DNA of 64,000 nt, from IMG/VR virus record IMGVR_UViG_3300027608_000014, positions 1 through 64,000 of that record; one strand, given 5' to 3'. A program made the translations under genes and the position numbers. Source of the stretch: a virus. Shown in pieces: positions 10,289 to 28,575 of this stretch (within the stretch, counting starts at the first letter, position 1; the number at the start of each line of letters is the position of its first letter). A model generated the notes under the pieces. That model had not been told where the DNA came from. It searched no databases and worked only from the letters and a program-made list of their open reading frames with translations.

Positions 10289-12982
10289 ATGCCAAATACG
10301 CAAATTGAGCGCAGCCTTTCGGATCTAGCCATTACTAGTCTGGGAGATAAACTGCCAGGGTTGATGGAATACTTACTAGGCTTCGAGCTTGTATCAACAG
10401 GGGGTGCTGGTGAGAGTAGCGGAGCCCGTGCAGCAGGCATCCTCGGCTTTGACATTGGAGGAGAGCAGATTCTGCAGCCCGTACTGTTCCTTAATGGTCA
10501 GATCAAGGGCAATGACTGTCTGTACCTCAAAAGCTCCGATACGTTCATTTCCGCCTCTCCGGAGTGGGTTGAGTATCTAACGTCCAGGTCGACAGGCAAT
10601 CCAGGAGAGCCAAGACCAGGCGGAAGGAATCTTCCAGGTGTTCCATCGGAGTCTCTTAGGATCTTCAATCAGCCTCCCCAGATCAGCAACTCCAAGTATG
10701 CGTCTTACGGTGATGAGCTAGACAGTATCTTTGAGGAGTTCATGAATCCGCAGAGAGCAATGAGCCCAGCCTCTCCGACCTTCAATGTTCCAAATGTACT
10801 GCGCTCGATGGGCAAGGAGGCGTGCGTACACTTCATGCAGCACCTGCTCCAGGACTTCCCTGAGCTATTGGTTAAGCTGGCCGACTACTACCCAGGCGAC
10901 GAGCTAAAGATCGACTTCCCGCCAGAGCCAGTCGTCAAGACTGCTGCTGTCGTGCAGGTTCTTCCAGTGGAGTTCTCAACCCTCAAGAAAGCAGACATTG
11001 TTGATCTGGTTGGAGCCTATAAGAATCCCATGGTTGGAGTTCAGTCATATCAAAACTCTATACAACCACAGCCTGGTGGTTATGGAATGGTCCAGGGCGA
11101 TACAGCTTCTCCGAAACAGATAGGGAATCCCGAACACATCAGAACGGGGGTAACGCCAGGATTTCATGAAAAGGGAGGCGGAGAACGATTCAAAGATTAT
11201 AGTGCTACTGAGCAAGCAGTGATTACTGGAATAAAGGACTACAAAAGAGGTCTAACTGATCCAGCAGGGTTGAATGTAGACGCCTATCTGAAAAGTACGA
11301 ATAGGCCATCTCTACAAAATCCAGGAGAGATCAACACTTTTATCAAGAATATATTTCCTAAGATTACACAGGCTGGTCCATCACCATCCCTGCCCAAGAT
11401 TGCCACTCTAGTAGAGTTCTCAACCCTCAAGAACGTACAGGATCATCCAGAGCTATTCAGTCTCGAGCAGAAGCAGGCTGCCTTCCGTGGCGAACTGATC
11501 GTGATCGACAAGCGTGCCAAGGAAGAGAAGTCAGAGACGTTCTCCGACGATTATACTGAGAGATTCTCTGCTCCAACAGAGAGCGGATTCTACAAGATGA
11601 TCAACGCCTATGGAGAGCTTGAAGACGTCTTCATCGGATACAACAGCTTCCTGCTAGACAAGCCAGGCAAGAGTGTCGACGGCTGCACGATCATCGATCC
11701 ATCTAGTGGAGCGTTCTATTTGCCGATCAAGTCAGAGGAGGTCCTCGTTCGTCCGAAGAAGTCACTGAGCGACGAAGAGTTTGAGAAGAGCTTCAATAAG
11801 CTCAGCGAGATCTCGTCAGCAACAATGAACAAATGTTATGTTGCTATCTCACCTAATCGTCAGGTCAGCGCTCCTTTTGAGGTTCGCTCGAAAGACAAGT
11901 CCCCCAACTATCTAGCTCTTCGAGTCGACACTCTGTATACGTTCGAGAGCCGCATGATTGAGCAGCGTAAGGGTCGTCCAGTGTATGGACCACCACGCAG
12001 CAGCAACCATGTTCGCGGAACAACAGTTCGAATCGTAGACGCAAACGTGGGTAAGGTTACTCAACTTGGTGATGTCATCTGTGTGCCAAGCAGTTGGAGG
12101 ATCATGGAAATCGACAACAATCAGGACTTCTATGCATCTTGCTGCACCAGCAGTGATGACGCAGAGACCGCTGACAAGAAGCACAATGAGAAGGAGAAGA
12201 GAGTCCTGAGCCTCAAGCCAGGAAATATTTCCGTTCTTACTCAGGCCATCCAGGACAAGAATATCAAAGCTGTCTCTGTGGATAAGAAGGCTGGTTACTA
12301 CACCATCCTGCTCGGCAAAGGAAAGATGGCACGTTGTACTCATCCATTTAACAAGCACGCCGCTCTAGTCACTCTAGTCGGACGATTCGGTTTGTCCGAG
12401 GAGGACGCCAACGGCCTGCTCAAAAGCGCTGACGACAACGGCGCCTCCAAGTGCTGGGTAAAGATGGCAGCCATCTATGACGGCATGCCGTTCCCTAGTT
12501 ACGACAACTCCGCCGGAATGGACGAGATGGGCTACCCTGAGCAGTACAGAGTTACTGAGCAAGTAAATATTCCATTCAATAACCCGCCCATTACAGACGG
12601 ATCAGATCCAGCAATCGCTAACTACGACAAGATCAAACAGAGTGACGTCGACTTCCTGACCAGAGCTGCCGACACTAACGCGAAGAACGTATTCGATCCA
12701 GCCATGATCGGACAGATTCTTAAGACGAGCAGAACTTCGGCCATGATCGACAAGTGGCTGCCTGATCTTGTCAAAGCCATGGACTCGAGCGCCCGATTCC
12801 TATTGATGTTCTACTGGGCAAATGCCAAGTTTGCTGATATGTATGGAAGTGATGAGCTTTCCTCCCTAGAAGACTTGCTCCAAGAGAACCTATCCCAGTT
12901 GGGCAAATTGGTTCTGTTCCTCAAGCAGAAAACTGTTGAGGGCTCATCTGATCAAACCAGTGCATTCGCAAGTCGCTATTAA
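10289..12982 (+). CDS. Large putative prohead core/internal head protein with an inserted cassette
   Basis: 897 aa, in the head module. Multiple KxA sites (KYA, KTA, KKA, KIA, KMA). Duplicated VEFSTLK flanks a 148-codon insert. Confidence 0.6.
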   Translation: MPNTQIERSLSDLAITSLGDKLPGLMEYLLGFELVSTGGAGESSGARAAGILGFDIGGEQILQPVLFLNGQIKGNDCLYLKSSDTFISASPEWVEYLTSRSTGNPGEPRPGGRNLPGVPSESLRIFNQPPQISNSKYASYGDELDSIFEEFMNPQRAMSPASPTFNVPNVLRSMGKEACVHFMQHLLQDFPELLVKLADYYPGDELKIDFPPEPVVKTAAVVQVLPVEFSTLKKADIVDLVGAYKNPMVGVQSYQNSIQPQPGGYGMVQGDTASPKQIGNPEHIRTGVTPGFHEKGGGERFKDYSATEQAVITGIKDYKRGLTDPAGLNVDAYLKSTNRPSLQNPGEINTFIKNIFPKITQAGPSPSLPKIATLVEFSTLKNVQDHPELFSLEQKQAAFRGELIVIDKRAKEEKSETFSDDYTERFSAPTESGFYKMINAYGELEDVFIGYNSFLLDKPGKSVDGCTIIDPSSGAFYLPIKSEEVLVRPKKSLSDEEFEKSFNKLSEISSATMNKCYVAISPNRQVSAPFEVRSKDKSPNYLALRVDTLYTFESRMIEQRKGRPVYGPPRSSNHVRGTTVRIVDANVGKVTQLGDVICVPSSWRIMEIDNNQDFYASCCTSSDDAETADKKHNEKEKRVLSLKPGNISVLTQAIQDKNIKAVSVDKKAGYYTILLGKGKMARCTHPFNKHAALVTLVGRFGLSEEDANGLLKSADDNGASKCWVKMAAIYDGMPFPSYDNSAGMDEMGYPEQYRVTEQVNIPFNNPPITDGSDPAIANYDKIKQSDVDFLTRAADTNAKNVFDPAMIGQILKTSRTSAMIDKWLPDLVKAMDSSARFLLMFYWANAKFADMYGSDELSSLEDLLQENLSQLGKLVLFLKQKTVEGSSDQTSAFASRY
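10970..11433 (+). repeat. 20-bp direct repeat GAGTTCTCAACCCTCAAGAA flanking an in-frame insert
   Basis: Copies at 10970-10989 and 11414-11433, spacing 444 bp. Confidence 0.9.
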
Positions 12983-13000
12983 TTTTATCTAACCAATACT

Positions 13001-14632
13001 ATGTCTAATAAATTCACCCAAATCTACCTTGCCACCCTTAACAAGAAGGCTGAGGACGCAATAAGTAATCCTCCATTTGGCTATTATCCTGATACTCAAA
13101 TGAACGATTCGGTACCTGGATGGATGGGGCGAGGTGGAGATGCAGATGTTTTAACTCCAAAACCTCTGGGCCTTCAGGCTCCATTTGTTTCCCGCAGTCT
13201 CCTACCAAGTCTTTCGCCAGCCAGAGTGTATCTTTCCAGCAATCAAATTGACGACAATGGCATCAATGGCATTGCTTACATTAACGCTCCTGGAGGGATA
13301 GATAATACTAATGGTATAGGAGAACAGCCAGCTCTTCGTCCCGGATTCCCACAGACAGTAAGGTCCTCAGGAATACCTGGCGCTGAACTCTCTTTGGGAA
13401 ACATACCTCCAGACCCAACTCCTCAGCTTCGCGCTACGCCTCCAGGACTAAGGCCAGACCCATCCGCCCTAGGCAAGAAGGCTGAAGCCTTCCCAGAACC
13501 AGGTCGCTTTACTCTTGAGGGGTCTAGGCCAAGTCAGGGTGCTGCTCCAGAGATTCTTGGATCAAGACCAAGTAGCTTTACTCTTGAGCATACAGCAGCA
13601 AGGCCGACTACGGGTTTGGCCTTCACCTCTGGAGTTGATCTGCCAGCTCCTGCGCCAACTATCCTCGATTTGCTCATAAAAAATAGGCTCCTAGCTGGTG
13701 CTGGACTCGCTGCTGCTGGAGCCGCTGGCTACATGGGCTACAAAGCCTTGAGCAAAAAGAAGAAGAAGAAAGGTGACGACGACGATGACGACAAGACCGC
13801 ATCCTTCACTGAGGCCTACTACAATGGCCGTAAAGGTCCACAGTCGTACGCTGACACCTACATTGCTGCATTCCATAAGAGAGCTCAGGATGAGCCCCTT
13901 AGTGCTATTGAGCTGGATTATGGGAATATGGCGAGTAATACAGAGGCAAAGAAGAGGTTGCAGCAAACGCTCACCGACGTCGAAAGAATCCGTCGAGCTC
14001 CCGATCCCGAGCCACTGACTCGCAGACAGCGGGAGGAGGAGCTCGCAGAGGAGGATAGAGGAAACATCGCGTTGGGCGCGCCGCTTCGACCAAGTCCATA
14101 TCGGGCGCCTAAGTCCAGGAATCCAATCAATATTGCATCTGATACTGTTATGAATGGTGCCGCAGCACGCCAGTCCGCGCCAGCACAACCATCAATTCAG
14201 GACAAGGTTCTGTCAGCGGCTCGCTCAGCTGGCAACCAGATCAAGTCAACGGCCACCTCAGCAGGCAATGCGATCTCTGATGCCTATGGCCGGGCCAATG
14301 ACTCTATGGGCAGTAAGCTTGCTCCAGTAATTTATCCTAAAGTCTACGAGGAAGCCGCTGGAGTCGATCGAAACATCCCGATCCTTATGGAGAACAGTAG
14401 ATTCGCTAAGGCAATCGCTCCTTTCGATCCAAAGGCTCCACCTAAGCCAGGTCGTCAGCTCTCTGCCTTCAGTAGACTAGGAACTCCTGGATTCTCTAAG
14501 AACAAACTCAATCCTCCTCCTCAGCTTACTGGACTCGTCAACAGTGCGGCTCAGAATATGAATCCTAGTATCTCGGTTTCAACTCCCTCGGCGGCCCCGC
14601 GCTGGAACTTCACCCCCAGTGCCAATCCGTAA
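13001..14632 (+). CDS. Modular low-complexity internal-head cargo polyprotein
   Basis: Leader FTQIYLATLNKKA; segments split by KKA, KTA and KRA; one Gly/Ala TM-like helix followed by poly-K and poly-D. Confidence 0.6.
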   Translation: MSNKFTQIYLATLNKKAEDAISNPPFGYYPDTQMNDSVPGWMGRGGDADVLTPKPLGLQAPFVSRSLLPSLSPARVYLSSNQIDDNGINGIAYINAPGGIDNTNGIGEQPALRPGFPQTVRSSGIPGAELSLGNIPPDPTPQLRATPPGLRPDPSALGKKAEAFPEPGRFTLEGSRPSQGAAPEILGSRPSSFTLEHTAARPTTGLAFTSGVDLPAPAPTILDLLIKNRLLAGAGLAAAGAAGYMGYKALSKKKKKKGDDDDDDKTASFTEAYYNGRKGPQSYADTYIAAFHKRAQDEPLSAIELDYGNMASNTEAKKRLQQTLTDVERIRRAPDPEPLTRRQREEELAEEDRGNIALGAPLRPSPYRAPKSRNPINIASDTVMNGAAARQSAPAQPSIQDKVLSAARSAGNQIKSTATSAGNAISDAYGRANDSMGSKLAPVIYPKVYEEAAGVDRNIPILMENSRFAKAIAPFDPKAPPKPGRQLSAFSRLGTPGFSKNKLNPPPQLTGLVNSAAQNMNPSISVSTPSAAPRWNFTPSANP

Positions 14633-14636
14633 CGGG

Positions 14637-15743
14637 ATGTCACACATCGACTACTTCAGCGCCTATCGCAGCGGCGTGCGAAAGGTCGCTACGATCGTGC
14701 CGACTGCAGTAGAGCTCTACATGCAGGGCTTTCTTAAGCAGGCGGAAGTGCCCCCTTTCAAGCGATCGGTGGTTACTTCAACTGTCACCCCCCGCACGCC
14801 CTGGGCAAGATCATTCAGCGATCTGAGTGCATATCCTGGTCGACCAGTTCCAGGGGAAAACCGGCAAGGGCAGACAATTACATATTATACGCCGCCCGCA
14901 AATTCGCGCCCAGGATTTAGGCGATTGGCAGCGCTGAAGGGTAACGAGACTAATGCTCAGATGGATGCTTACCTGAGAGCACTGGCTGAACAAAACGCAG
15001 GCGATAGGGGCTCCTATAGGACTGTTTTTACCCCGCCAAGAGTAACTGAAAACTCGAGAGTGCTTAGTCAGAGCGAAGGCGATGCTATTTTCGGTCCTGT
15101 CCGTCCTCCTATTCAAACTCGGGTGGGAGAAGTCACACAAGTTCCAGGTGGAACTGTTGGGGAAAAGCCTCTGCCCGCCGGTGTCGTGTTCGGTCCTGAC
15201 GTAAAGACTCCACATGGAGGCTATCGTAAAATTCTGAATTCAACTCAGCAGACAGACATAAAGCCTCCAGAACTTCGCGCTACGCCTCCAGAGCTAAGGC
15301 CAGACTCAGCCCCAGCTCTAGAAGAGCCTCCAGCGGCACTAGCTGTATCTCAACTTCCAGGAGAGCTTGCTCAGCCGACACTGGGTGGCAGGTCGCTTCT
15401 GTCACCGGAAACCAAACGAGAGTCGGGCGCTGAATTCAAGCGTGACAATCCCGAGCTTGCGAAGATCAGCCCCAGTAAGCCAGCCAGGCCAGTCGATATC
15501 TCGCCTGATATGAATACTCAGTTTAAAAGATTTCACGGAACTAAGTTCGATCCAACCAGTAGGGTTGATAGAGAAAAGCTGACGAAACTTCCGCCAATTT
15601 CAGCTAAACCAGAACCCATCTCATCAGCTAAGAACACACAGTTTAAAGACTATCACGGAACTAAGTTCGATCCAACCAGTAGGGTTGATAGAGAAAAGCT
15701 GACGAAACTTCCGCCAATTTCAACTTTCGACACAACGGCGTAG
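14637..15743 (+). CDS. Modular internal-head cargo protein with tandem 40-aa repeats
   Basis: Start reassigned to ATG 14637. Two leader motifs (...RKVA, ...LKQA). Two HGTKFDPTSRVDREKL repeats. Confidence 0.6.
   Translation: MSHIDYFSAYRSGVRKVATIVPTAVELYMQGFLKQAEVPPFKRSVVTSTVTPRTPWARSFSDLSAYPGRPVPGENRQGQTITYYTPPANSRPGFRRLAALKGNETNAQMDAYLRALAEQNAGDRGSYRTVFTPPRVTENSRVLSQSEGDAIFGPVRPPIQTRVGEVTQVPGGTVGEKPLPAGVVFGPDVKTPHGGYRKILNSTQQTDIKPPELRATPPELRPDSAPALEEPPAALAVSQLPGELAQPTLGGRSLLSPETKRESGAEFKRDNPELAKISPSKPARPVDISPDMNTQFKRFHGTKFDPTSRVDREKLTKLPPISAKPEPISSAKNTQFKDYHGTKFDPTSRVDREKLTKLPPISTFDTTA
15533..15722 (+). repeat. 120-bp-period tandem repeat with a 70-bp identical core; third diverged copy near 28000-28115
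   Basis: 15533-15602 is identical to 15653-15722. Confidence 0.9.
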
Positions 15744-15756
15744 GGGCTTAATCGTC

Positions 15757-17346
15757 ATGTTAAAGCGCGCAGAGGAACTTGGCGTAGTCAGCTTGGGTCG
15801 ACCAGCAAGGTCGCCCGAGCGCGTACTTGCGGGTCAGAAGCAGCTTCAGGCAATCAGAGACGAGTACGACAATCGTCACTACACTACCGCCAAGAATCTA
15901 GGCAAGTCATACCTGGGAGCATTCAAGGATCTGGGCTCCTTCCTTGCCACACCCACCAGACCTTTACCTGGAAGCAGAGCTGCTGTTCTTGAAGCGTCTA
16001 AGGGGAGTCCCGATTATGCCGTCAAGGCTGTAGGTGGACTCCTCCGTAGAGCAAAGAAGATGGATCAGGACGCAGGTCAGTGGATAATAGACAAAAACCA
16101 GCAGGCTGGCGACTATATTATAAATGGAGTCACGAATGCCGGTAAATCATTCGCTGCACATCCAGTTCAATCAACTAAGGAGTTTTTAAACGAAGGCTTC
16201 GTTGAGCCGACCAAAGGACTAGGGCAGCACATCCCAGCGTATATTGCGGCGGGCAAAGAACGTGGATGGATGTCTGATGAGGCTAATGATGAGCTCATGA
16301 ATGCTGGATTTAATGGGGTTCACCTTGGAACCAACCTTATGCTGGGCTTGGGTACTATTGGCAAGAGGATGGGATTGAATAGGCTGGCTGTGGCAGGAAG
16401 AAACAAGCTTCTCCCAGGGTTCGGGCTGCGGGCGGCGGCTAAGCTGGAGGCTGCTAAAGTTTTAGCCTCCAGCAAGGCTATTGCTAAACTGCCAGCTCCA
16501 AGATATTTGAACTCGCCAGCTAAAGGAGCGGACGGTCCACTCACCAGAGAAGGCATTGGAACCCTCAGTGGAGCAGATAAAGCTTGGCAAGCTGAACTGG
16601 CTGTACCAACTAGCTTCAATCCAACTAGCTTCAATCCAACTATCTTCAATCCAAACGCTTCCTGGTTACAGAAGGCCGTCCCTGTCTCTCCTGGTTTTGC
16701 TAAGGGAACGGCCCAAACGATCGCAGGAGCAGAATTACTAGCATGGAATGGATTGTTTCCGTCGATGACCAAACGGGATGCTCCGTCTCTACAAGATCAG
16801 AGCATCATAGGCCCCCTAACTGACGGGCCTGTTGAGGCACCTTTCTTTCAGGCTGCTCAGGCACAACAAGATGCCATTGATGACGCAAAACTATTTCAGG
16901 CCTTCACTGGCTTTCGAAAGTACCAGCCGATTAGTACGGCTCCATCTCTACAAGATCAGAGCATCATGGGTGCCCTAACTGACGGGCCTGTTGAGGCACC
17001 TTTCTTTCAGGCTGCTCAGGCACAACAAGATGCCATTGATAACGCAGATCTAAATCGTGCCCTCACTGGAGTCCCCGACTTCCAGCCGATCAGTACCGCT
17101 GCCTCCACTCCAGCCCCAGAGCTTTCAAGTCCAGACTCTAATCCAATCAATACGGCTCCACTCCAGCCAACGACTCTGCCTCCAGGAAGATCACTTCTTC
17201 CTTATGCTGGGTGGGTCGCTGGTGGCTTAGCTGCCGGTGGACTGCTGGCCTGGACGATAAACCACGCCAGGCAAAAGAAACTAGAAGCAAAGAAGCGGCA
17301 GTACCCTCTTGCTCAGCGCTATCCGGCACTGTATGGTTCCAGATAA
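15757..17346 (+). CDS. Modular internal-head cargo protein with C-terminal TM helix
   Basis: MLKRA start; 53-aa duplication; (PTSFN)-like x3; C-terminal WVAGGLAAGGLLAW followed by a basic tail. Confidence 0.6.
   Translation: MLKRAEELGVVSLGRPARSPERVLAGQKQLQAIRDEYDNRHYTTAKNLGKSYLGAFKDLGSFLATPTRPLPGSRAAVLEASKGSPDYAVKAVGGLLRRAKKMDQDAGQWIIDKNQQAGDYIINGVTNAGKSFAAHPVQSTKEFLNEGFVEPTKGLGQHIPAYIAAGKERGWMSDEANDELMNAGFNGVHLGTNLMLGLGTIGKRMGLNRLAVAGRNKLLPGFGLRAAAKLEAAKVLASSKAIAKLPAPRYLNSPAKGADGPLTREGIGTLSGADKAWQAELAVPTSFNPTSFNPTIFNPNASWLQKAVPVSPGFAKGTAQTIAGAELLAWNGLFPSMTKRDAPSLQDQSIIGPLTDGPVEAPFFQAAQAQQDAIDDAKLFQAFTGFRKYQPISTAPSLQDQSIMGALTDGPVEAPFFQAAQAQQDAIDNADLNRALTGVPDFQPISTAASTPAPELSSPDSNPINTAPLQPTTLPPGRSLLPYAGWVAGGLAAGGLLAWTINHARQKKLEAKKRQYPLAQRYPALYGSR
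16780..17100 (+). repeat. 159-bp tandem duplication
   Basis: APSLQDQSI...AQQDAID copies start at 16780 and 16939. Confidence 0.9.
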
Positions 17347-18285
17347 ATGGCTGACGAGGTAATTCCACAATTAAAGAGACTCCCACGATCACTAGAGGAG
17401 TCTTCTAGCTATTATCCTGACTGGCGAATGCGCCAGGTCCTGCAATATAACGCCTTAGAGGGAGCGGAGAGAGCGGCTCATGGACGAGGCTTTCAACTAC
17501 CCGACTGGGAAGATGACGAAGAGGTTCATCGCTACTTTGCGTATACCACACAGGGAGTAAGCTTTGATATAGCTGACACTAAAAGATTTTTCTATGCTGA
17601 TGAGGCCATCCAGCACAACTATCGCACAGGAGCTGCCGCCCGCATCAGATGCCTATTGATCGCTGGTGCGACACCTGACTTTGTCGCCAAGAGACTGGGA
17701 ACCAAGAAGGACCACATCGAAACCTTCTACAGGCTATACTTCGACATCGATCGGTGCTTGGACAACAAGGACTTCATGGCCAGTCTAGTATTTCCATTTG
17801 TGGTTCCCAGATCAGAGCCACCAGAGCAGAAGAAGGAGCGCCTGTGGAGAACAGGCGCCTTCCTAATGGACATCCCTGGATTCGACGCAATCTCACAGAA
17901 AAGAATCGACATGAACGCCGCTGACATCGAGAAGATGAACGGTCAGCTCAAGTCTCTAATGTACAGTCAAGGACTCGAGTACTGCTTGCACCGACGCGCA
18001 GGAATGCTTCCTGGCCCAGGAGACTTGGACAATGTCCTTGCCCATATGCAGATCCCTGCTACTGGAGACAGCGAGAGAGACAGCCAATCCTCAATCTTTA
18101 CTTCTAGTCTTGTTCAGGTGGCTGCAGAGAAATACAGCCTGACCACGACAACAAAAATCACAGATATTCAGGTTGTCTCCACTCGAATTGGACCCGCCAC
18201 TTCGTACGCTATACAAGACCTTGATTATTTTGCTGGAGACGAAGAGATAAACCAACTAGGATTACTGACTGATGAATACCGCTGA
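17347..18285 (+). CDS. Hypothetical head-module protein with an HTH-like segment
   Basis: 312 aa; GATPDFVAKRLGTKKDHIETF. Confidence 0.55.
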   Translation: MADEVIPQLKRLPRSLEESSSYYPDWRMRQVLQYNALEGAERAAHGRGFQLPDWEDDEEVHRYFAYTTQGVSFDIADTKRFFYADEAIQHNYRTGAAARIRCLLIAGATPDFVAKRLGTKKDHIETFYRLYFDIDRCLDNKDFMASLVFPFVVPRSEPPEQKKERLWRTGAFLMDIPGFDAISQKRIDMNAADIEKMNGQLKSLMYSQGLEYCLHRRAGMLPGPGDLDNVLAHMQIPATGDSERDSQSSIFTSSLVQVAAEKYSLTTTTKITDIQVVSTRIGPATSYAIQDLDYFAGDEEINQLGLLTDEYR

Positions 18286-19585
18286 ACGTAAAATTTTTGC
18301 TGCTCACAAGAAAGCTGGTCAATACTGCGTAGAGGGCCTGGACCCAACTAGCGCTCTGATCAAAGCCGCTAACCTTGATGAGCTGAATCCAGAGATGACT
18401 CGTCGAGTTTCTGAGATGTTGAATATCTCTCTCACGAAGTCCTTCATGAAGTCAGCCAGCGATAAGACCGCTAGTTTTCCTCTAGCCGACTGTGAAAAGG
18501 CAATCAAGGAAGTGTTTGCTGGAGAGGTTCACGCCAAGACAGCAGCTGTGCTCTCTGATCTTAATTGGGAGCTAGAAGGCAAGTCGCTCTCTATCACTAG
18601 AAAGATTGATACCAGCAACGACCATTCATTCTTTAAGGTTGCCAAGACAGAGACCAAAGAGGACATCAATCATCTGGTCAAGCAAGCTGAAGGGGCAAAA
18701 GACCTACTTCGCGTTGAGATCAGCAAGAGAGCTCAGGATCTACTATCCGCTGAGACTAAGGCCCTTCACACCTATACCGATATCATCTCTCACTTCAGAC
18801 AGAACGCTTACCTTCCTCAGAAGTTTGCTCAGTTCGAGGAGCGCTGCTACAGCGAGTACGGACTCGATGTCGGTCAGTATCTTGACTCGATTCACGTACA
18901 GCTAAATGAAGGCACAGATCGTGGAGACAGTGACTCTCATAAGAAGGCTTTCTACTTTGAACCAGACAGCGCTAATATCCTGTTCGATTCCCTCATGAGT
19001 CAAACAGATCAGATTAGCAAGCAGGCCTCTGAGTTGGTAATCGCCAAGGCGGCGTTCGGTAGCTTTGACTCTCAGATCAACCATTTCTATAAGCAAGCTC
19101 TTGGTGGTAAGCCCGAAGTCGCTGGCTGTGCCGGTGACATGCTCGACCTGAGTAAAAAAAAAGCTGACTTCGGCTTGCTAAGCAGTCCTCGACTGGAAGC
19201 TGCTGTTGCTTCACACGGTCAGCAAGGTTCTGACGCGTTTACCAAAGGCTTAGAGGCTGCTCAAAACAGAATCTACAAGCGTCCCGGTGATGAGACCGAC
19301 ATGGAGATGGACAATGTTCGTCGCCAAGCTATCCTAGCCGACCTGATGAGTAATGATGACATTATCTCAGGTCAGGAACCAGGCCACGTTCAGTCAGCCT
19401 ACAACACTTTGCTTTCGATCTCCCCACGCTCTACTCTGCATCGAGAGGTCGTCAGATCTGTATTGAGAAACGCAACTGCAGCTCAAGCGATCGATCCATT
19501 TACCGCCAAACAACTAGCTGACCTTGAGGGCCAGCACCTGAAGAACGAGAAGATCGAGAAGGGTCAGATGGCGGTTTCTCCATAA
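18272..19585 (+). CDS. Putative prohead core protein (KxA-rich, helical)
   Basis: 437 aa with KSA, KTA x2, KVA, KQA x3 and KKA sites; A9 run at 19154-19162. Confidence 0.6.
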   Translation: MNTAERKIFAAHKKAGQYCVEGLDPTSALIKAANLDELNPEMTRRVSEMLNISLTKSFMKSASDKTASFPLADCEKAIKEVFAGEVHAKTAAVLSDLNWELEGKSLSITRKIDTSNDHSFFKVAKTETKEDINHLVKQAEGAKDLLRVEISKRAQDLLSAETKALHTYTDIISHFRQNAYLPQKFAQFEERCYSEYGLDVGQYLDSIHVQLNEGTDRGDSDSHKKAFYFEPDSANILFDSLMSQTDQISKQASELVIAKAAFGSFDSQINHFYKQALGGKPEVAGCAGDMLDLSKKKADFGLLSSPRLEAAVASHGQQGSDAFTKGLEAAQNRIYKRPGDETDMEMDNVRRQAILADLMSNDDIISGQEPGHVQSAYNTLLSISPRSTLHREVVRSVLRNATAAQAIDPFTAKQLADLEGQHLKNEKIEKGQMAVSP

Positions 19586-19593: not shown

Positions 19594-20661
19594 ATGAACA
19601 AATTAGCTTTCTTAGACTCTATTCGTCAGGGTATTCGGGGCATAGTTGACAAGGGCTACAATGCTGTCAACGATGCTGCCAAGAGTCTTACCCAAGGGAA
19701 TCTTGATCCTCGGACTGGAACTTATCCCGCTGACGGACTGTCACTGGACCAACTTGGCAATAAGTACCACGACAATCTCGTTTACGGCCTAGCCGGAACA
19801 GCTGTCGGTGGCGGTATTGGTGCACTCACTACTGACACTGAAGAGGATAAAACATTTGGAGATAAACTCAGACATCGTCTACGTAATGCGCTTACTGGCG
19901 GTATTGCTGGCGGTGCCGTGGGACTTGGTGGAAAGGTATTTGTTGATAGCTACGTCACTAAGCCAGATCTCCCTAAGAGGCCTTCTTACTATGGTGCTGA
20001 ACTGGGAAAGAAAGTTGATAACTTTTTTGGAGTCAACAAAAATGAAAGTCTGACCGTCGAACAGGTAGCAAATCGAGCAAGGGCGGAAGCGACAGCCAAA
20101 CCGGGCGCGACACCGAAGTCTATTGATGCGGATGTAAAAGCGGCTGTTGAGGCCACAACCGCTCCTCTTGGACCTGTAGAGACCGCCGTCGCGATAGCTA
20201 ATCCAATGACAGGCTCAGAGGTTGGTAGGTCCGCTAGCGGTGCATTGATTGCAGGGACCCTTGGAGAGGGGGTCGTCCGCCTTGGTAATAATAGGATAGA
20301 TCCTATTGTTGTGAGCGATAACGTGAGTAAAAGACTGAATGACTTCAAGCTTACCAGGATGACTACAGGAACGCCAGGTGCCCCAGGAATAGCAGCTATC
20401 GATCCTGCACTAAAAGCCCCCGGCGCTGAATCTCCTTATCGTAAAGGATTCTCTCTGAAAAGACTAACCAACCAGCAGGCGCTTGATGAGATGACTCTAC
20501 TGAGAGACTCACCAAAGCCAGGAACAAGGGCTCTCAAGAGATACGGCCTTACAAATAGAATGCCGATCGGAAAGGGACCCAGGGCCCTTCAGGCTCTAGC
20601 TGCATTTGCGGGACTAGTTGGCGCCAACGTGGTCGGAAAACCCAACGTAGAACCCAAGTAA
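19594..20661 (+). CDS. Glycine-zipper internal/ejection-like protein
   Basis: MNKLA start; GLAGTAVGGGIGAL and GGIAGGAVGLGG hydrophobic glycine zippers. Confidence 0.55.
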   Translation: MNKLAFLDSIRQGIRGIVDKGYNAVNDAAKSLTQGNLDPRTGTYPADGLSLDQLGNKYHDNLVYGLAGTAVGGGIGALTTDTEEDKTFGDKLRHRLRNALTGGIAGGAVGLGGKVFVDSYVTKPDLPKRPSYYGAELGKKVDNFFGVNKNESLTVEQVANRARAEATAKPGATPKSIDADVKAAVEATTAPLGPVETAVAIANPMTGSEVGRSASGALIAGTLGEGVVRLGNNRIDPIVVSDNVSKRLNDFKLTRMTTGTPGAPGIAAIDPALKAPGAESPYRKGFSLKRLTNQQALDEMTLLRDSPKPGTRALKRYGLTNRMPIGKGPRALQALAAFAGLVGANVVGKPNVEPK

Positions 20662-21989
20662 TGGACAAGATTGTTTTCAACGACAGCTTCGACTATGGAA
20701 CTGATCTTCCACTGGCCACCATCGCTGATGATCCAATGGTCCTGCGTAAGTGCGCTTCGTCTGTCTCGGATGGATGGGGCAAGATTGACCCAATCAAGGA
20801 TCACACGTTGATTCATCTAATTGCCCTAGGCGCCCACGAGAAGACTGGTCGTAATAGAAATGCAGACTCTTGGAGAGAAAATGTTCTCAGGCAGAAGCAC
20901 GGAACATTCAAGACCCACGGCAAGCTCTACCACAACCATCTGGCAGAAGAGGGCAAGGAAGAGGGCTTCGTCCACAAGACCGCCTTCAACGAAGACATGG
21001 GCCGTGCAGAACTGGTCATTGCTGCAGATAACGATAAGTGCGCCGCCTGGCTGGGAGACGTTGAAAAAGGGAAACCAGTGAGTTTCTCCATGGGATTCAA
21101 GTGTACTCATCCAGGAGACGAGTGCTCTATCTGTGGTAACTTTGCAGCTAAGAGAGAAGATTACTGCAAGCATCTAAAGAAGAACGCCTCAGCACCGTAC
21201 GGACTGAATCGAATTCTTCCCGATGGTCGTGCGTGTTTTGCTTTCAACGATGCGGGATTCTTTAACGACATCTCCAAGGTTCCTATTGGCGCTGATCAAA
21301 TCGCCATGGGCCTTCGCAAGGTTGCGTCTCTGTCTTCCGATGAAGTGATCGGTGGAGCAGAACTAGCTGAGCAATACTTCATTCATCACAGCGATGTGGA
21401 TCACGGCAAGGTTGCCATCGTTCTAAAGCTGGCTGACATCGAGAAACGCATTGAGTCGATCGGTACTGGCATCAAGGGATCTAGAAAGAGATCCCTCTGC
21501 AAGGTGGCGATGGACAAACTTCGTGAAGCTCCAACTAAAGAAATGTTCCTCGAGCTGTCCAAGCTGGGAGCTATTCTGCCGATGGTCGATTTTTACAAAC
21601 TTGTTTTTGGTTCGGAATTTGCGAATCACGAACGCGCCATCAATAAGGCCGCAAGCTACGAGGCAAACTTTTTTTTAGCTATTGCAGCCGACAAGGAGAG
21701 ACTGCGCAGCGTGTGCTCCAATACTACCTACGATCCTGCACCCATTAGCCACGTTCGTTTGGACTACGAAAGTAAGCGAGCAATTGCAGCTGAGTATTCT
21801 ATTGATACTGAGCTTGCCGCAGATCGCGCCATTAAGCGTGCAGCTTTGCTTGACAGTATTCCTCCAGCGAATACTATTTCATCCCAAGATAACTATCTGA
21901 TCGACCAATACGGCGCTTACAAAATTAGCGCGTTGAAGGCGATCAGCCCAGAAGTGAACGACGAAATTCTTTTTGCATCACTTATTTAG
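20661..21989 (+). CDS. Prohead (capsid maturation) serine protease with Zn-finger insertion
   Basis: NRNAD...YHNH (His)...VSFSMG (Ser)...CSICGN...CKH...DIS. Lies upstream of scaffold and capsid genes. Confidence 0.75.
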   Translation: MDKIVFNDSFDYGTDLPLATIADDPMVLRKCASSVSDGWGKIDPIKDHTLIHLIALGAHEKTGRNRNADSWRENVLRQKHGTFKTHGKLYHNHLAEEGKEEGFVHKTAFNEDMGRAELVIAADNDKCAAWLGDVEKGKPVSFSMGFKCTHPGDECSICGNFAAKREDYCKHLKKNASAPYGLNRILPDGRACFAFNDAGFFNDISKVPIGADQIAMGLRKVASLSSDEVIGGAELAEQYFIHHSDVDHGKVAIVLKLADIEKRIESIGTGIKGSRKRSLCKVAMDKLREAPTKEMFLELSKLGAILPMVDFYKLVFGSEFANHERAINKAASYEANFFLAIAADKERLRSVCSNTTYDPAPISHVRLDYESKRAIAAEYSIDTELAADRAIKRAALLDSIPPANTISSQDNYLIDQYGAYKISALKAISPEVNDEILFASLI

Positions 21990-22029
21990 TTGCAGCGTAA
22001 CAATCTATCCCATAACATCCACTAAACAT

Positions 22030-23427
22030 ATGCATAAACAAGCGTCAGTAGGCAGTATCCTAGACTCCTTTTCAAAGTTCTACAGTCCCAAGACGGCAGG
22101 TCATGACTCTCAGGGCTTTCACGAATCACCCGCTCCTGCTACCAAGACGGACGAGGAAACTGCATCAGCTCTAATTACTCCAGGAACTAACGTTCCTAAT
22201 GCCGTCAACTCCGCTGGAGTTGACGCAGGAACATCGATGTCCTGTTGCCCCGCTAACATCCCAACTGAAGAGCTCGTCCGCAAGGAACAGAGTGTGTCGG
22301 CCAAGATCGCTGCGGCTCCAGGTAGCGTTGAAGAGCTAGTCAGTCGACTCTCTGGTAATCTTCTCAAGATCGCTGGAGGCGAAACACTGGCAGCCCAGAC
22401 GGTGGAACCGGTGGAACCAGTAGAAGCCAACAAAGTTGCTTCTGTCATTTCCGAAGTAAATATTGATCTTCTAGCGCAGAAGACAGCAGCCTTTCTAGCG
22501 GCCACCGAGTTTGGTTATAATAAAGCCAAGGAAGTCTTTGCTCCTCAGACCAAGATCGCAGCTCCCTCGCTCACTCTCCCAGAAGACATCGAGGCTCGTA
22601 TCGAAAGTCGAGTTTACGAACTCAAGACTGCAGGCCTAAACGACCAGCAGATCTACGCTCAGCTTCAGGCTGACGGTCAGGCTGACGCAGAGATCCTGAC
22701 AAAAGAGGCCGAAGTTGCGGAAATCACCCGGCACAATCTGGCATCGTTTGTTGAGCAGAAAATTGCAGCGCAACTTAATGCTGGCACCATTTCCTCACAA
22801 CAGGCTGAGATTCTACTGACCGATCTAGGTTATGAAACTGATACCGTCAAGCTAGCCAGCATCGAGCAGGCAGTTGATCATAAGGTTGCTTCACTCCGTC
22901 ATCAGTATCCAGCGATTACTGACGAGCAGATTATGGAAGTTCTCCAGAAAGACGCTGAGGCTGACGCCGCAGCGATGGTTGATCCAAATGCGATGCCTCC
23001 AAATGAAATGGTCGATCCAAATGCGATGTATCCAGATGAGAGGCCTCCAGGCGAGATGCCTCCAGGTGCCGAAGGTGAAATGCCTGCAGGTGCTGAAGAA
23101 GAATTGGCCGCTCAATTGCAGCAGGCCATTGCTGAACTACAGCAGGCAGTTGAAGCGGGACAGATGACTGAAGAGCAGGCTCTACAGTTGCTTGAAGAGG
23201 CCGGTCTAGACGTTCAAGGGATGCTCGCTGCTGCAGGCGCTGCGCTTGAAGCCCCAGTCGCTGAAGGTGCAGAGGCTCTTCCAGCCGATGCCTACGCAGC
23301 TGAGGAGGGGGCCGAAAAGAAAGAAGCCGCTCTGACCGATCTCATTGCTGCAGCTGACAGGGCTTATCTAGCGGGTAGTCTCACTAAGGCTCAGGCCAAT
23401 TCAATGGTCGCAGCTCTCAAAGCTTAA
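22030..23427 (+). CDS. Capsid scaffolding protein
   Basis: Start reassigned to ATG 22030. Acidic Ala/Glu/Gln-rich and helical; 14 of 22 Lys are in KxA; sits between protease and capsid genes. Confidence 0.7.
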   Translation: MHKQASVGSILDSFSKFYSPKTAGHDSQGFHESPAPATKTDEETASALITPGTNVPNAVNSAGVDAGTSMSCCPANIPTEELVRKEQSVSAKIAAAPGSVEELVSRLSGNLLKIAGGETLAAQTVEPVEPVEANKVASVISEVNIDLLAQKTAAFLAATEFGYNKAKEVFAPQTKIAAPSLTLPEDIEARIESRVYELKTAGLNDQQIYAQLQADGQADAEILTKEAEVAEITRHNLASFVEQKIAAQLNAGTISSQQAEILLTDLGYETDTVKLASIEQAVDHKVASLRHQYPAITDEQIMEVLQKDAEADAAAMVDPNAMPPNEMVDPNAMYPDERPPGEMPPGAEGEMPAGAEEELAAQLQQAIAELQQAVEAGQMTEEQALQLLEEAGLDVQGMLAAAGAALEAPVAEGAEALPADAYAAEEGAEKKEAALTDLIAAADRAYLAGSLTKAQANSMVAALKA

Positions 23428-23434: not shown

Positions 23435-23827
23435 ATGGACTCACAGATCGAATCAGTAATTGCGGACTCCAAGGCTCTGCTCGCTCTTGCGGGTCCAGCT
23501 TTTGAGGCTCAGAAAAAAGTAGCAGCCCTAGAAACTTCCAAGGTAGAGTTGCTCTCCAAGGTAGCTTCATTGGAGAAAGCTAGCACCGATCGCGAATCGA
23601 TCATCAAGACTGCTGCCGATGAAGCTGCAGAATTCTTTGATGCTCGTGGTATGCTCAAGGTGTCAGCCGAAGACTTCAGTGCCCGTCTTCAGTCAAATCC
23701 CGCCGAGATCTTTTCTGTAGTACAGAAGTTTACAGATGCTTCGACCCAAAAAGAAGCGGGCGCACCAATGGAAAATACATTGGCTGACGATGGACTTGAT
23801 CCAATTCAAAGATTTGTTCGTAGCTAA
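23435..23827 (+). CDS. Small scaffolding-like coiled-coil protein
   Basis: 130 aa; KVA x2, KTA, KEA. Confidence 0.6.
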   Translation: MDSQIESVIADSKALLALAGPAFEAQKKVAALETSKVELLSKVASLEKASTDRESIIKTAADEAAEFFDARGMLKVSAEDFSARLQSNPAEIFSVVQKFTDASTQKEAGAPMENTLADDGLDPIQRFVRS

Positions 23828-24549: not shown

Positions 24550-25632
24550 ATGTCTAATACAAATTCAGTTCTCAGCACCCAGTTCTTCTCCAAGCTCGCG
24601 TCTTCGGACCCAGGCGTGCAGAAGCAAGCCGCAGAAGCCGCAACAGACTACACTCGTATCACTCTTCGTGACGAGGGTATCCTACGTAAGATTCTCCCAG
24701 TAGAGTCGATCACCGAAGCGCAGCTGGACAACCAGCTCAACACTGACCAGCCGGTCAAGATCGTTGAGAAGGAAGTTCAGACTCCTCTTGGAGCCTCAGT
24801 GCCCTTCAGCACTCTGCCAAGCAACGTTGAGATGAACTTCAGCAAGTACTCAGTCAACTTTGCTCGCATCTTGACCAAGAACTTCATCAAGGACGTTCAG
24901 CTTCTAAAGGGTTATAATACCGACATCCGCAACATCTTCAAAGACAATGCGATCAAGGACATGATGACCGCCGAAGACGTGCCTTTCATGGCCCTCATCG
25001 ATGCGATCGTTACTCCGCAGTCGACGCTCGTTCAGGCAACGGCCGCCGCGACCGCTCTGGCTACCCCAACAGAAGTTGCAGCTCGTATCGCTGATACCAC
25101 TGGTGTCTACGGTAACCAGGTCAGCAAACTAACTGGCAAAGTGCAGTACTACGATTGGACCCATGCAAATGGTAACCCTCTCGGTGCCGCTCTTGGATTC
25201 TCCCGTGATTCGCTGGTCGAATCCAAGAAGATCCTGTTGAAGGCTCACTCGCTGACCAACGCTGGCGTGTCGACCCCGATCCGCAACAAGCCAGCCCTCG
25301 TCCTCATGAACGCTAATACGTTCAGCGAATACGAGAAGTTCACTCGCGACAACATGGGTGGCGACAAGTCCCAGGAACTCTTTGAAAAGGGTGTTTCCGA
25401 AGGAACATATAACGGTCTGAAGCACGTTACCACGCTCAAGGATGATATCGTCCTCGACGGTATGGCGTACTACTTTGCCGCGCCAGAATTCCTAGGCCGC
25501 GCCTACGAACTCCAGTCCCCAACAATGTTCATGGAGCTTCGTGCATACCTGCTCGAGTTCTTCGCTTACAGCTGCCTGGGCGCCTCAATCGGCAACCCTT
25601 ATGCAGTGGCTGCTGTTCGTTTCTTCAGATAA
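24550..25632 (+). CDS. Major capsid protein (HK97-fold, inferred)
   Basis: 360 aa after protease/scaffold genes; strongly biased codon use; followed by a strong terminator; C-terminal IGNPYAVAAVRF; KxA at residues 15 and 25. Confidence 0.8.
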   Translation: MSNTNSVLSTQFFSKLASSDPGVQKQAAEAATDYTRITLRDEGILRKILPVESITEAQLDNQLNTDQPVKIVEKEVQTPLGASVPFSTLPSNVEMNFSKYSVNFARILTKNFIKDVQLLKGYNTDIRNIFKDNAIKDMMTAEDVPFMALIDAIVTPQSTLVQATAAATALATPTEVAARIADTTGVYGNQVSKLTGKVQYYDWTHANGNPLGAALGFSRDSLVESKKILLKAHSLTNAGVSTPIRNKPALVLMNANTFSEYEKFTRDNMGGDKSQELFEKGVSEGTYNGLKHVTTLKDDIVLDGMAYYFAAPEFLGRAYELQSPTMFMELRAYLLEFFAYSCLGASIGNPYAVAAVRFFR

Positions 25633-25651: not shown

Positions 25652-25685
25652 AAAGGCCACACAGAAATGTGTGGCCTTTTTGTTG
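25652..25685 (+). terminator. Intrinsic terminator after the capsid gene
   Basis: AAAGGCCACACA-GAAA-TGTGTGGCCTTT-TT. Confidence 0.85.
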
Positions 25686-25743
25686 TCTATGTATCAATAT
25701 CAATCTTCCCAACTCATACTAACCACGCTACAATAACCCGCAA

Positions 25744-26157: not shown

Positions 26158-26206
26158 TACCTCTGACGACGGGGCCTTTTGATGTCGCCTCTTTGATTTC
26201 ATAATT

Positions 26207-26860
26207 ATGTCTCTCCTTAGATTCAGTCAGACCTTCATATTTCCAGGAACACTTGTCGACGAACAGGTGTTCGGGATCTTTACTGCTGATGTCGGCGTAA
26301 ACATCAATCAGGCTCAGATATCCTGCCAGACTGCTCCTACAGGAGCCAACGTAACTGTAGATCTAGTCAATGGAGCAGGAACCTCTTTGTCCGCACTAGC
26401 AACTCTGACTGCTGCCTCAAAGGATCAAGTTACCACCTTTAATTCGCCAATTTCTGTAGCAGCGAATGAGACCATAAGAGCGAAGATCAAATCTATTGGA
26501 AGTTCCGAGCCAGGAGTGTTTCTAGTTCTTACAATCATTGGAACGTACGATCCCACTGAAATAGATGAAGTCTTCCCAGATGCCGTTGATGTCTGCACGT
26601 TGTTCGGCTATCAGTATGTGAACGGACTGCCAACCGTAGGCACTCGCGTCTCGATCAGACTAAATGAATCGCCAGTTATATCCTCGACGACCGTTTTCGA
26701 ACACGAGCCTCGCAGCGTGGATACAGATGAAGATGGATACTGGGAGATGGATCTGGTACAAAACCAGAACTACTTGCTGACTATCTGGAAGTCTGGCATT
26801 CTCAATCAGTCGATTGTGATTCCGGCTCAAAACACTTGCAACGTAGCCACACTAATTTAA
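26207..26860 (+). CDS. Putative virion structural protein with two beta domains
   Basis: 217 aa; TAPTGA..VDL motif and a transthyretin-like TDEDGYWEMDL segment. Confidence 0.5.
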   Translation: MSLLRFSQTFIFPGTLVDEQVFGIFTADVGVNINQAQISCQTAPTGANVTVDLVNGAGTSLSALATLTAASKDQVTTFNSPISVAANETIRAKIKSIGSSEPGVFLVLTIIGTYDPTEIDEVFPDAVDVCTLFGYQYVNGLPTVGTRVSIRLNESPVISSTTVFEHEPRSVDTDEDGYWEMDLVQNQNYLLTIWKSGILNQSIVIPAQNTCNVATLI

Positions 26861-28575
26861 TGAATAAGTTTACACAATTCTACTTGAACGAGATGAACAA
26901 GAGAGCTGCGATAAATTGGCCTTCAATCATAAAGAAGGTCAAGAGTGTTATTGCTTTAAACGCCGCACCGGTTGGCGCAGCCGCCGGTGGTGGGTACCTA
27001 AACTATGATGAGAATGATCCCATAAGATCAGCAGCCATTGGTGCCATCTCAGGATACGGTGCTACCCATATGGGACAAGGAGGGGCTAAGTTACTTCCAC
27101 AGACCGCCAAGTGGAGACCAATGAGAGCAGGTCTAGTCGGCACCTCAATGCTTGCTGGTGATGTTATTATTCCACAGGGACGTGAAATGATGCGTACCTC
27201 AAAGGAACTCAATATGGCTGACACCGCTCTTAAGTTAGAGCAAAAGAATTTCCTCCTAAATCCTCCACCAGCCGCTCCGACACCCGCTCAGCTTTACGGG
27301 CCTCCGATGCCGACGCCAGCTGCTCCCGCACCAGCTGCTCCCGCACCAGCTGCTCCCGCACCAGTTACTATCAACACTCCTAGCAAACAGAATATCAACT
27401 TGATCCCAGGTGGTCCAGCAGTCCAGTGGGCCGCAGGGCTCACCGCTCTAGGGCTGTCTGCTGCTGGCATCTACGCTTTATCACAGATTGCTCGAGCCAA
27501 TAAGCGTAAAGCTGACGGCAAGGAAACCCCTCCAGTTACCAACATCAATATGACCGGTGGTGGCGGTGAAGGTGGTGCACCTGGTGCACCTGGCGCTCCA
27601 GCTGGACCGGCTAAGCCTTCTGCTGGAACTCTCAGGGTTACACTTCCAACTCGCAATGGAAAAGATAATGAGACCCAGGTCGAGATGCCACTTGAGCAGA
27701 TCGGTCTCTCCAAGACTCTGATCAATAAGATTCGTCGTGACACCAAGCGCAGGCTACGACTTGAAAGCGACGGTCGCACGCTCCACGTCGTTCCACCAGC
27801 AACGGCGGCTACCAAGATCGCAAGATTTACAAGGAGGCCACTAAACTTTGACCACATCCTCAAGAGAGCAGACTCGACTGGACTTGACACTGCCCCCTCG
27901 AAGTCATCACCGCCTTCCGCTATTCCTAAGCTTCGCGCCGCCTCTCCAGGGCTAAGGTCCACGCCAGCTGTGATTAAGCCAGGAATCGTCAGGCCAGCTA
28001 AACCAGGCGATATCTCGCCTGAGATGAATGATCAGTTTAAAAGATTTCACGGAACTGACTTCGAGCCAACCAGTAGGGTTGATCAGCAGAAACTAAAATC
28101 ACTGCCGCCGATCAAAGTGCCTCAGCCTCCCAAGGCACCAGCGCCTGCAGCGCCTGCTCCAGCGGCACCAGCTCCCTTGTCAGCTACTCCAGTTCCATTT
28201 AAGGATCCTAATGAAGAAGAAAATGCAATCTTTGACCAAAAGAACAAAGATCTCCTAGCAGCGTCCTCGTCGAAGAATTTCTATCGTGACCGAGCGCAGA
28301 AAGGTACGATCAATCAGAACAACGATATTGCAGCAGGACGACTAAGTGGATTTGAATCACCCTTGCCAGAGCCATCTGTGAAGACCGATAGCGGTTATCC
28401 AGGCATGAGCCTGACTCCTTCTCGCCCCGCTGAACTCCAGCCAGCGCCTGAGCGGCTCGTTAAAAACCAACAACGTAGGGAGGATAAAAAGTTCCTAGAT
28501 TTCCTCGCCCGGAAGCCGAAAATTCCAGACGAACAAGTTCTTCGGCAAGGCGGGGAGGTTCCGGTTACTGATTAA
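26860..28575 (+). CDS. Modular internal-head cargo polyprotein
   Basis: Start reassigned to ATG 26860 (TAATG overlap). Leader FTQFYLNEMNKRA; TM-like helix; shares modules with the 13001 and 14637 ORFs. Confidence 0.6.
   Translation: MNKFTQFYLNEMNKRAAINWPSIIKKVKSVIALNAAPVGAAAGGGYLNYDENDPIRSAAIGAISGYGATHMGQGGAKLLPQTAKWRPMRAGLVGTSMLAGDVIIPQGREMMRTSKELNMADTALKLEQKNFLLNPPPAAPTPAQLYGPPMPTPAAPAPAAPAPAAPAPVTINTPSKQNINLIPGGPAVQWAAGLTALGLSAAGIYALSQIARANKRKADGKETPPVTNINMTGGGGEGGAPGAPGAPAGPAKPSAGTLRVTLPTRNGKDNETQVEMPLEQIGLSKTLINKIRRDTKRRLRLESDGRTLHVVPPATAATKIARFTRRPLNFDHILKRADSTGLDTAPSKSSPPSAIPKLRAASPGLRSTPAVIKPGIVRPAKPGDISPEMNDQFKRFHGTDFEPTSRVDQQKLKSLPPIKVPQPPKAPAPAAPAPAAPAPLSATPVPFKDPNEEENAIFDQKNKDLLAASSSKNFYRDRAQKGTINQNNDIAAGRLSGFESPLPEPSVKTDSGYPGMSLTPSRPAELQPAPERLVKNQQRREDKKFLDFLARKPKIPDEQVLRQGGEVPVTD

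Follow-up and report, generated by a model that had tools for sequence, protein, structure and literature searches.

The question raised by the locus described here is by which rule the prohead protease of a large, uncultured phage cuts, since prohead proteases decide which parts of the head proteins remain in the virion. The locus is the head module (positions 10289-28575) of a window comprising the initial 64 kb of the viral record IMGVR_UViG_3300027608_000014 (148,872 bp, completeness estimate ~75%). Every long open reading frame (ORF) of the window lies on the + strand. The head module has no DNA-level match to cultured phages, and Pfam and PHROG annotation of its ORFs found next to nothing. 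A preliminary description of the window had proposed that a protease encoded by ORF 20661 processes the whole head interior at K-x-A, i.e. at Lys followed by any residue and Ala. Based on sequence statistics, conservation and structure models we consider it probable that K-x-A followed by Ser, Ala or Gly is the cleavage motif of the prohead protease. The assignment of ORF 20661 as the enzyme, of Lys to the third position before the cut (P3) and of the sites that are cut is our inference.

K-x-A was counted per gene against 2,000 composition-preserving shuffles, and patterns were ranked among 1,600 gapped dipeptides by observed versus expected numbers. The tripeptide is strongly enriched in ORFs 10289, 18272, 20661 and 21973 and in one ORF on the minus strand at 83582-84550 of the genome. 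Pooled, these five proteins contain 64 K-x-A where 19.2 are expected (p=6e-16), which ranks first among the 1,600 patterns, the runner-up having a p value of 3e-4. The unselected pool of all 15 ORFs of the head module also puts K-x-A at rank 1 (75 vs 41.2, p=1.5e-6), and the remaining 183 ORFs of the genome hold 182 K-x-A against 199 expected. The excess of Ala is restricted to the position +2 from Lys, all remaining offsets from -6 to +6 being close to the expected value of about 4 per protein, and it persists after correction for composition. The head-versus-tail comparison that the preliminary description had suggested as a check thus gave a gene-specific enrichment that is missing from tail and sheath genes. 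In the head proteins of this phage the gapped-dipeptide scan detected no excess of any x-E pattern, which is statistical evidence. A cause at the DNA level was rejected: the Ala codons at K-x-A sites correspond to background usage, so the signal acts at the level of the protein. As a mild side observation, AAG encodes the site Lys in 54/64 cases (84%) and 78/116 (67%) of the other lysines of the same five proteins.

Several of the manual counts made earlier were reproduced. The scaffold-like protein (ORF 21973, or 22030 from its likely ATG) has 14 K-x-A among its 22 lysines, or 23 if the TTG start is used, with 4.2 expected; 0 of 2,000 shuffles reach 14 (Poisson p ~1e-4). The two sites near the N-terminus of the capsid protein, K15-L-A and K25-Q-A, are present, and the sheath-like protein lacks K-x-A among 23 lysines (3.2 expected). 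The recurrence of the tripeptide along the head module was found to be more restricted than described: ORFs 10289, 18272 and 20661 are enriched and ORF 23435 is borderline, but ORFs 13001, 14619/14637 and 26836/26860 are not enriched.

T4 gp21 (PDB 5jbl, MEROPS family S77) processes gp22, gp67, gp68, gp23, gp24, IPI-III and Alt, with capsid-targeting leaders on its substrates, and served as positive control. The same scan on T4 gp67, gp68, gp21 and gp22 ranked I-x-E first and L-x-E second (gp22: 16 vs 5.8 expected; gp21: 7 vs 2.6), i.e. it recovered the established gp21 sites, and hence its signature matches a real cleavage code where the answer is known. The K-x-A signal exceeds the T4 I/L-x-E signal in strength.

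The sites resemble each other beyond the tripeptide. In the sequence logo, Leu is 2.6-fold enriched at -2 from Lys, Thr, Val and Ile are favoured between Lys and Ala, and Ser, Ala, Asp, Gly and Glu are favoured directly after Ala, followed by a hydrophobic residue. At the first position after the presumed cut (P1'), one of S/A/G/D/E is found at 47/64 sites of the enriched proteins (background 0.40, p=4e-8), Ser being the commonest (16/64, 3.1-fold enriched), whereas the 65/182 found at K-x-A elsewhere in the genome equal the background. As this bias is confined to the enriched set, the sites there constitute a distinct motif of four to six residues and not chance tripeptides. We therefore propose an extended motif that would read hydrophobic (P5)-x-Lys (P3)-[T/V/I] (P2)-Ala (P1), with the putative cut preceding [S/A/G/D/E] (P1'). 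Cutting all sites would leave the products of ORFs 18272, 21973 and 83582 as pieces of mostly 10-50 residues.

The candidate enzyme is encoded directly in front of the scaffold-like gene, and the order protease, scaffold-like protein, small protein, capsid protein is shared by the window, two metagenomic loci (L001 and L002), the cultured Salmonella phage Arash and the cultured Vibrio phage D181, which were used for comparison throughout. In the AlphaFold model of ORF 20661 (predicted local distance difference test, pLDDT, 81), residues 1-212 make up a beta-rich domain, which a disordered linker (211-226, pLDDT <50) joins to a helical C-terminal domain (~230-442). Three T4 gp21 chains were the only credible matches of this model in Foldseek (5jbl: probability 1.00, target-normalised template modelling score, TM, 0.58), and the Foldseek-independent VIA-align superimposed 141 residues on 5jbl with Z 11.4 and a root mean square deviation of 2.9, the next unrelated rows having Z <5. 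Herpesvirus proteases gave values below the level at which the tool advises trust (varicella-zoster virus, VZV, Z 6.2; human cytomegalovirus, HCMV, Z 4.8; Kaposi's sarcoma-associated herpesvirus Z 2.6), with VZV and HCMV directly after gp21. At the sequence level, there is a weak match to a head maturation protease family (PHROG 18299, E=8e-4), and the comparison of ORF 20661 with Pfam gave no match and hence places it neither in S77 (PF03420) nor in S78 (PF04586). Searches of the genome with PF03420, PF04586 and ClpP found no other S77, S78 or ClpP protease. A profile search of solved structures with an alignment of 35 homologues returned no protease, and hhalign against the single gp21 sequence was non-significant.

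In this alignment H93 and S143, 50 residues apart, are invariant, as are C155, C158 and C169, which together with C148 and H171 form a Cys/His cluster. The preliminary description had called the enzyme a zinc-finger protease; the inserted Cys/His knuckle is probably a zinc site, a label derived solely from the conserved Cys and His residues. The best-conserved site of the protein is L218-x-K220-x-A222, with Lys kept in 34/35 homologues, Ala in 32/35, Leu at P5 in 33/35 and a Ser, Gly or Ala at P1' in 29/35. The model has a single strongly disordered stretch, and K220-V-A222 is part of it.

The protease family is large. A word-indexed search retrieved 96 homologues of ORF 20661 and an exhaustive profile search 4,673 representatives at 50% identity, all of them unannotated; this branch takes in Arash and the Vibrio phages D69, D148 and D181 and, more distantly, phage G and the cluster C mycobacteriophages. 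Searches for related loci with the window protease and with the 35-homologue alignment returned no loci. Most of the 96 homologues, down to ~28% identity, contain 10-17 sites where 3-4 are expected, with flat neighbouring offsets, the enrichment being weaker in the most distant ones. A further 94 representatives with <50% mutual identity contain 1,154 sites when pooled (328 expected), and 87/94 are individually significant. All 21 scaffold homologues have 11-16 sites (3-8 expected) with mostly S/A/G/E/T at P1'. The excess recurs in the syntenic genes of L001, L002, Arash (gp220, gp222, gp223 and gp225) and D181 (0275, 0277, 0278 and 0280) but not in the capsid and tail genes of these four, and of all ORFs in the 141 kb of Arash that were scanned, gp220, gp225 and gp223 show the strongest enrichment. 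As an observation on the protease gene itself, 41 of 135 representatives of the family that were examined, e.g. P0118, P0142 and P0252, are 560-1,605 amino acids (aa) long because they carry 1-3 inteins (Hint and LAGLIDADG), which makes this gene a hotspot of intein insertion. In some of them, such as P0118, the insert begins immediately behind the putative catalytic motif FSMG-x-x-Cys.

An experimental anchor comes from the capsid protein. ORF 24550 leads by tblastn to the annotated major capsid protein of Arash and is related to phage G gp27 (hhalign, 97% probability). The site K25-Q-A27 is kept in 4/5 relatives and displaced by one residue in the fifth, K15 and A27 being invariant in the 5 phages. 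N-terminal (Edman) sequencing has shown that the phage G capsid protein is shortened from 282 to 255 residues on maturation (Hua et al. 2017, Table 1; PMC5646251). The gp27 sequence puts this cut at R-V-A-L-A27/Q28, and the masses computed for the two forms, 31.19 and 28.17 kDa, agree with the published 31.2 and 28.2. Window R36 aligns to phage G R35 in hhalign. The measured cut precedes this invariant Arg by 7 residues, as do the predicted cuts of L001 and L002; for the window phage, Arash and D181 the distance is 8 residues. Thus, the site cut in phage G and the predicted one are homologous and differ in position by at most one residue, and the phage G cut follows Ala. Moreover, the protease homologue of phage G, gp19, contains 8 K-x-A (2.5 expected), the enrichment across the head genes of phage G being weak.

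Beyond the five enriched proteins, the motif is found at N-termini. K-x-A occurs in the first 45 residues of 10/15 head-module ORFs and of 17/127 ORFs elsewhere (Fisher p=2e-5). Five of these 17 lie at 132.9-144.4 kb, adjoining a portal-like ORF, and may belong to the same virion module. The corresponding numbers in Arash are 7/9 head ORFs and 7/82 early ORFs (p=1.3e-5). ORFs 13001 and 26836/26860 share a leader, NKFTQ-[I/F]-YL...N-K-[K/R]-A, whose last residue, Ala, marks the end of the similarity between the two. Short N-terminal leaders that end in the protease motif and are carried by several head proteins, a trait of the T4 capsid-targeting sequence type, are found here. Our data therefore speak for K-x-A processing by the protease, given conservation, the P1' preference, the fold, the T4 control and phage G, but the earlier formulation that the whole head interior is processed was too broad: five proteins look extensively cut, and the others carry N-terminal sites only.

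How might the same pattern arise in another way? The enriched proteins are Ala-rich and largely helical, and the excess could be a functionless by-product of composition, helical periodicity or repeats in such Ala/Lys-rich proteins. However, +2 alone is enriched, with +1, +3, +4 and the negative offsets at expectation, equally Ala-rich proteins have no K-x-A, the P1' bias is seen in the enriched set only while the Ala codons match the background, and the site density is kept while the sequences diverge below 30% identity. The offset profile and the conservation effectively refute this explanation, to which we give next to no chance. A cut after Lys, with Lys at P1 and Ala at P2', is another matter, as Lys is the most strictly kept residue of the motif and HK97-type proteases are able to cut after Lys, e.g. 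at K103/S104 of HK97 gp5. Nevertheless, the characterised relatives share the P3-x-P1 layout, it is the residue after Ala that is restricted whereas the one after Lys is variable, the homology of the shared leaders stops at Ala, and the measured phage G cut follows Ala with no Lys nearby, so that we regard cleavage after Lys as very unlikely.

It is also conceivable that K-x-A is not cut at all and is a docking or targeting motif that binds a common partner such as the C-terminal domain of the protease, the inner surface of the capsid or the portal. Enrichment, conservation and N-terminal position would fit a capsid-targeting signal, and some conserved sites are held by helices or strands. Yet 11-14 copies per protein at a spacing of 10-50 residues resemble the pattern of T4 gp22 rather than docking, a preference for small residues at P1' is typical of protease sites, the best-conserved site resides in the disordered inter-domain linker of the protease, and the homologous capsid site of phage G is cut; we thus consider docking unlikely, though the least so of these alternatives. 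Slightly less probable than either docking or cleavage after Lys is that the sites are cut by an enzyme other than ORF 20661, i.e. by a host protease or an unrecognised phage protease. A genome record that is about three quarters complete leaves room for such an enzyme, but motif and protease family co-occur with Salmonella, Vibrio and freshwater bacteria as hosts, and more weakly with Bacillus and Mycobacterium, ORF 20661 ranks with the most strongly enriched proteins, and the searches found no S77, S78 or ClpP homologue elsewhere in the genome.

Some observations weigh against K-x-A cleavage by ORF 20661. Cleavage products of this phage or its close relatives have yet to be observed, and the Arash virion paper, which together with its supplement gives a generous 'virion' proteome of 116 proteins, reports neither termini nor peptide lists and recognises no protease (PMC10585845). 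No paper describing a prohead motif K-x-A or Lys-X-Ala, or the capsid termini of Bxz1, turned up in literature searches. The measured phage G site has Ala at P3, which leaves the Lys requirement without experimental support, and the equivalence of H93 and S143 to the catalytic residues of gp21 could not be demonstrated at residue level. Within the protease, the conserved K-x-A at K106, K126 and K250 have bulky P1' residues and lie in regular secondary structure, so that these sites may be structural rather than cut. In the AlphaFold2 model of ORF 10289 the sites are not enriched in disorder (~6/14, with 42% of the chain disordered). Finally, the structural genes at 24550-64000 contain 20 K-x-A where 38 are expected (ratio 0.52, compared with 0.8-1.24 at other offsets), a deficit that is not seen in non-structural genes, and non-enriched head ORFs past their leaders have a ratio of 0.53, but the depletion in structural genes was not replicated in Arash (ratio 1.08); tentatively, the deficit reflects lineage-specific avoidance or chance.

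If K-x-A is the cleavage motif of ORF 20661, head maturation may be pictured as follows. The protease would be incorporated into the prohead and cleave itself at two sites, K30 and the linker site K220. It would then chop the products of ORFs 21973, 18272, 23435 and 83582-84550 into peptides of ~10-50 residues that are able to exit the shell, and cut the product of ORF 10289 into several pieces, while the capsid protein (by a cut after A27) and the majority of the other head-module proteins would lose short N-terminal leaders.

Table 1. Coordinates of the features discussed. Positions refer to the window unless stated otherwise; 'vs' separates observed from expected numbers of K-x-A.
Feature	Position	Strand	Remarks
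897-aa head protein	10289..12982	+	14 vs 4.4, +2 offset only
543-aa head-module protein	13001..14632	+	5 vs 3.7; leader MSNKFTQIYLATLNKKA ending K15-K-A17
374-aa head-module protein	14619..15743	+	K22-V-A and K40-Q-A near N-terminus; 3 vs 1.7, unenriched
529-aa head-module protein	15757..17346	+	K3-R-A5 at extreme N-terminus; K-x-A otherwise sparse, 2 vs 4.5
437-aa K-x-A-rich protein	18272..19585	+	14 vs 3.9; predicted fragments mostly 5-40 aa
355-aa head-module protein	19594..20661	+	K3-L-A5 at N-terminus; 2 vs 3.0, unenriched
Candidate prohead protease	20661..21989	+	11 vs 4.2; gp21/assemblin fold
K220-V-A222 codons, predicted autocleavage site	21318..21326	+	linker between protease domain and C-terminal domain
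Scaffold-like Ala-rich protein	21973..23427	+	likely start ATG 22030; predicted fragments mostly 11-30 aa
130-aa small helical protein	23435..23827	+	4 vs 1.7, borderline enrichment
Major capsid protein	24550..25632	+	K15-L-A17 and K25-Q-A27 predicted propeptide sites; unenriched overall
K25-Q-A27 codons, predicted maturation cut	24622..24630	+	predicted mature N-terminus AEAATDY...
579-aa protein, likely start 26860	26836..28575	+	leader MNKFTQFYLNEMNKRA; 3 vs 5.3, unenriched overall
Sheath-like 1,028-aa protein, negative control	30577..33663	+	0 vs 3.2; 23 Lys, 142 Ala
322-aa orphan protein	genome 83582-84550 (L006:1583-2551)	minus	11 vs 2.5, regularly spaced

The proteins listed in Table 1 differ in what can be said about their roles. 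In ORF 10289 the sites are clustered (residues 136-233, 370-408, 666-725 and 847), and in its family K136 and K725 are kept in 13/13 homologues and K176 in 12/13. Its orthologues are L001 734-2977, Arash gp218 and D181 0273. A fold search with the AlphaFold2 model (pLDDT 58.8) returned noise and no fold match; the protein is a probable multiply cut cargo or internal protein. The orthologues of ORF 18272, i.e. L001 7348-8781, L002 8276-9223, Arash gp220 and D181 0275, are all rich in K-x-A, and a disposable core or scaffold-type protein is its probable role. ORF 23435 has an orthologue, L001 13125-13523, with 6 vs 1.4. The ORF at 83582-84550 is located outside the window, a long way from the head module, is encoded by the other strand and is the single further enriched protein genome-wide. 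With a weak, sub-threshold match to DUF6582, it probably encodes another head protein that is degraded by the protease. The sheath-like ORF 30577 has weak tblastn matches to a phage G gene annotated as tail sheath and to structural proteins of Arash and D181.

Three further observations concern the surroundings of these genes. ORFs 14619 (residues 275-327) and 26836 (374-426) have a 53-residue segment with 62% identity in common, which suggests a shared module or a recent exchange. Directly 5' of the head module, window 8215-10101 encodes a fragment of a multisubunit RNA polymerase beta' subunit that is not enriched in K-x-A (2 vs 3.6), a split beta' gene comparable to Arash gp206 and gp216. 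The beta and beta' subunits of Arash rank among the most abundant proteins of the virion preparation (PMC10585845), a hint that phages of this clade package an RNA polymerase. The 534-aa ORF at window 56147-57751, likely a fibre protein, consists largely of collagen-like G-P-T triplet repeats and tops every gapped-dipeptide statistic of the genome; as this repeat protein swamped a genome-wide gene-by-pattern scan, that scan was not used for ranking.

To our knowledge, all characterised gp21-type phage proteases cut after Glu. Their motifs are L/I-x-E in T4, S/A/G-x-E in phiKZ and A-x-E in SPN3US, and in both SPN3US gp245 and phiKZ gp175 the autocleavage site directly follows the protease domain (PMC5694885). 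ORF 20661 shares with T4 gp21 the fold, the gene position upstream of the scaffold and capsid genes, the short leaders on many head proteins and the saturation of scaffold and protease with a P3-x-P1 tripeptide. It differs in its predicted motif, K-x-A instead of (L/I)-x-E, in the missing Pfam S77 match and in length: the protein is twice as long, the putative catalytic Ser being followed by the Cys/His knuckle and, further on, by ~210 aa that form the helical C-terminal domain. The phiKZ gp175/SPN3US gp245 systems are similar in that the phage is large and a split gene for a multisubunit RNA polymerase adjoins the head module; the processing of many head proteins and the autocleavage just past the protease domain, which has been shown for gp245, are predicted here. 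In contrast, P1 is Ala and not Glu and P3 is Lys in our proposal, sequence-level similarity was not detected, and the capsid protein is a small HK97-type one of ~360 aa that is related to phage G gp27 and not of the phiKZ type.

The herpesvirus assemblins (MEROPS S21), with the consensus (V/L/I)-x-A then S, resemble ORF 20661 in other respects. The fold may be related (VZV 1vzv, HCMV 8j3s), the inferred P1 is Ala with Ser as commonest P1', and assemblin releases itself from a scaffold-like C-terminal extension, as is predicted for ORF 20661. On the other hand, P3 is hydrophobic in assemblin and Lys here, there are two sites in assemblin as opposed to many sites per substrate, and the fold match is weaker than the one to gp21. 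Phage G, finally, provides with gp19 a distant homologue of ORF 20661 (28% identity over 210 aa) that is enriched in K-x-A and with gp27 a homologous capsid protein cut after Ala at the equivalent place, although the measured site, A-L-A then Q, has no Lys at P3 and the K-x-A enrichment of the head genes is weak. On balance, it is rather likely that a large branch of capsid proteases with gp21/assemblin fold cuts with Lys at P3 and Ala at P1, a rule that no characterised phage enzyme follows.

Once a cut rule is known, genomes yield calls for scaffold, cargo and shell proteins, leader boundaries and polyprotein joints, and annotation errors are exposed. An example is gp94 of the Bxz1-type mycobacteriophage Rizal (L013:10905-15017), a protein of 1,370 aa that is annotated as 'tape measure' and begins with a protease domain. 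Its residues 1-~220 are homologous to the ORF 20661 protease, K219-T-A then G follows directly after this domain, the whole protein contains 19 K-x-A (8.3 expected), and its gene is located just 5' of the major head protein gene. Probably, Rizal gp94 combines this protease with a scaffold-like tail of ~1,100 aa and is mis-annotated across cluster C mycobacteriophages.

An Ala-cutting clade with Lys at P3 would widen the range of specificities of phage prohead proteases and would tie these enzymes to assemblin by specificity as well as by fold. If the rule is true, the match of Ala at P1 and Ser at P1' to assemblin would mean that Ala-specific cutting is ancestral to, or recurrent in, the lineage of phage and herpesvirus proteases. 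As the clade is large and has cultured members, i.e. Arash and the Vibrio phages D69, D148 and D181, the prediction is directly testable, and, if it holds, one could predict from sequence which mature proteins make up the virions of thousands of large phages that are uncultured.

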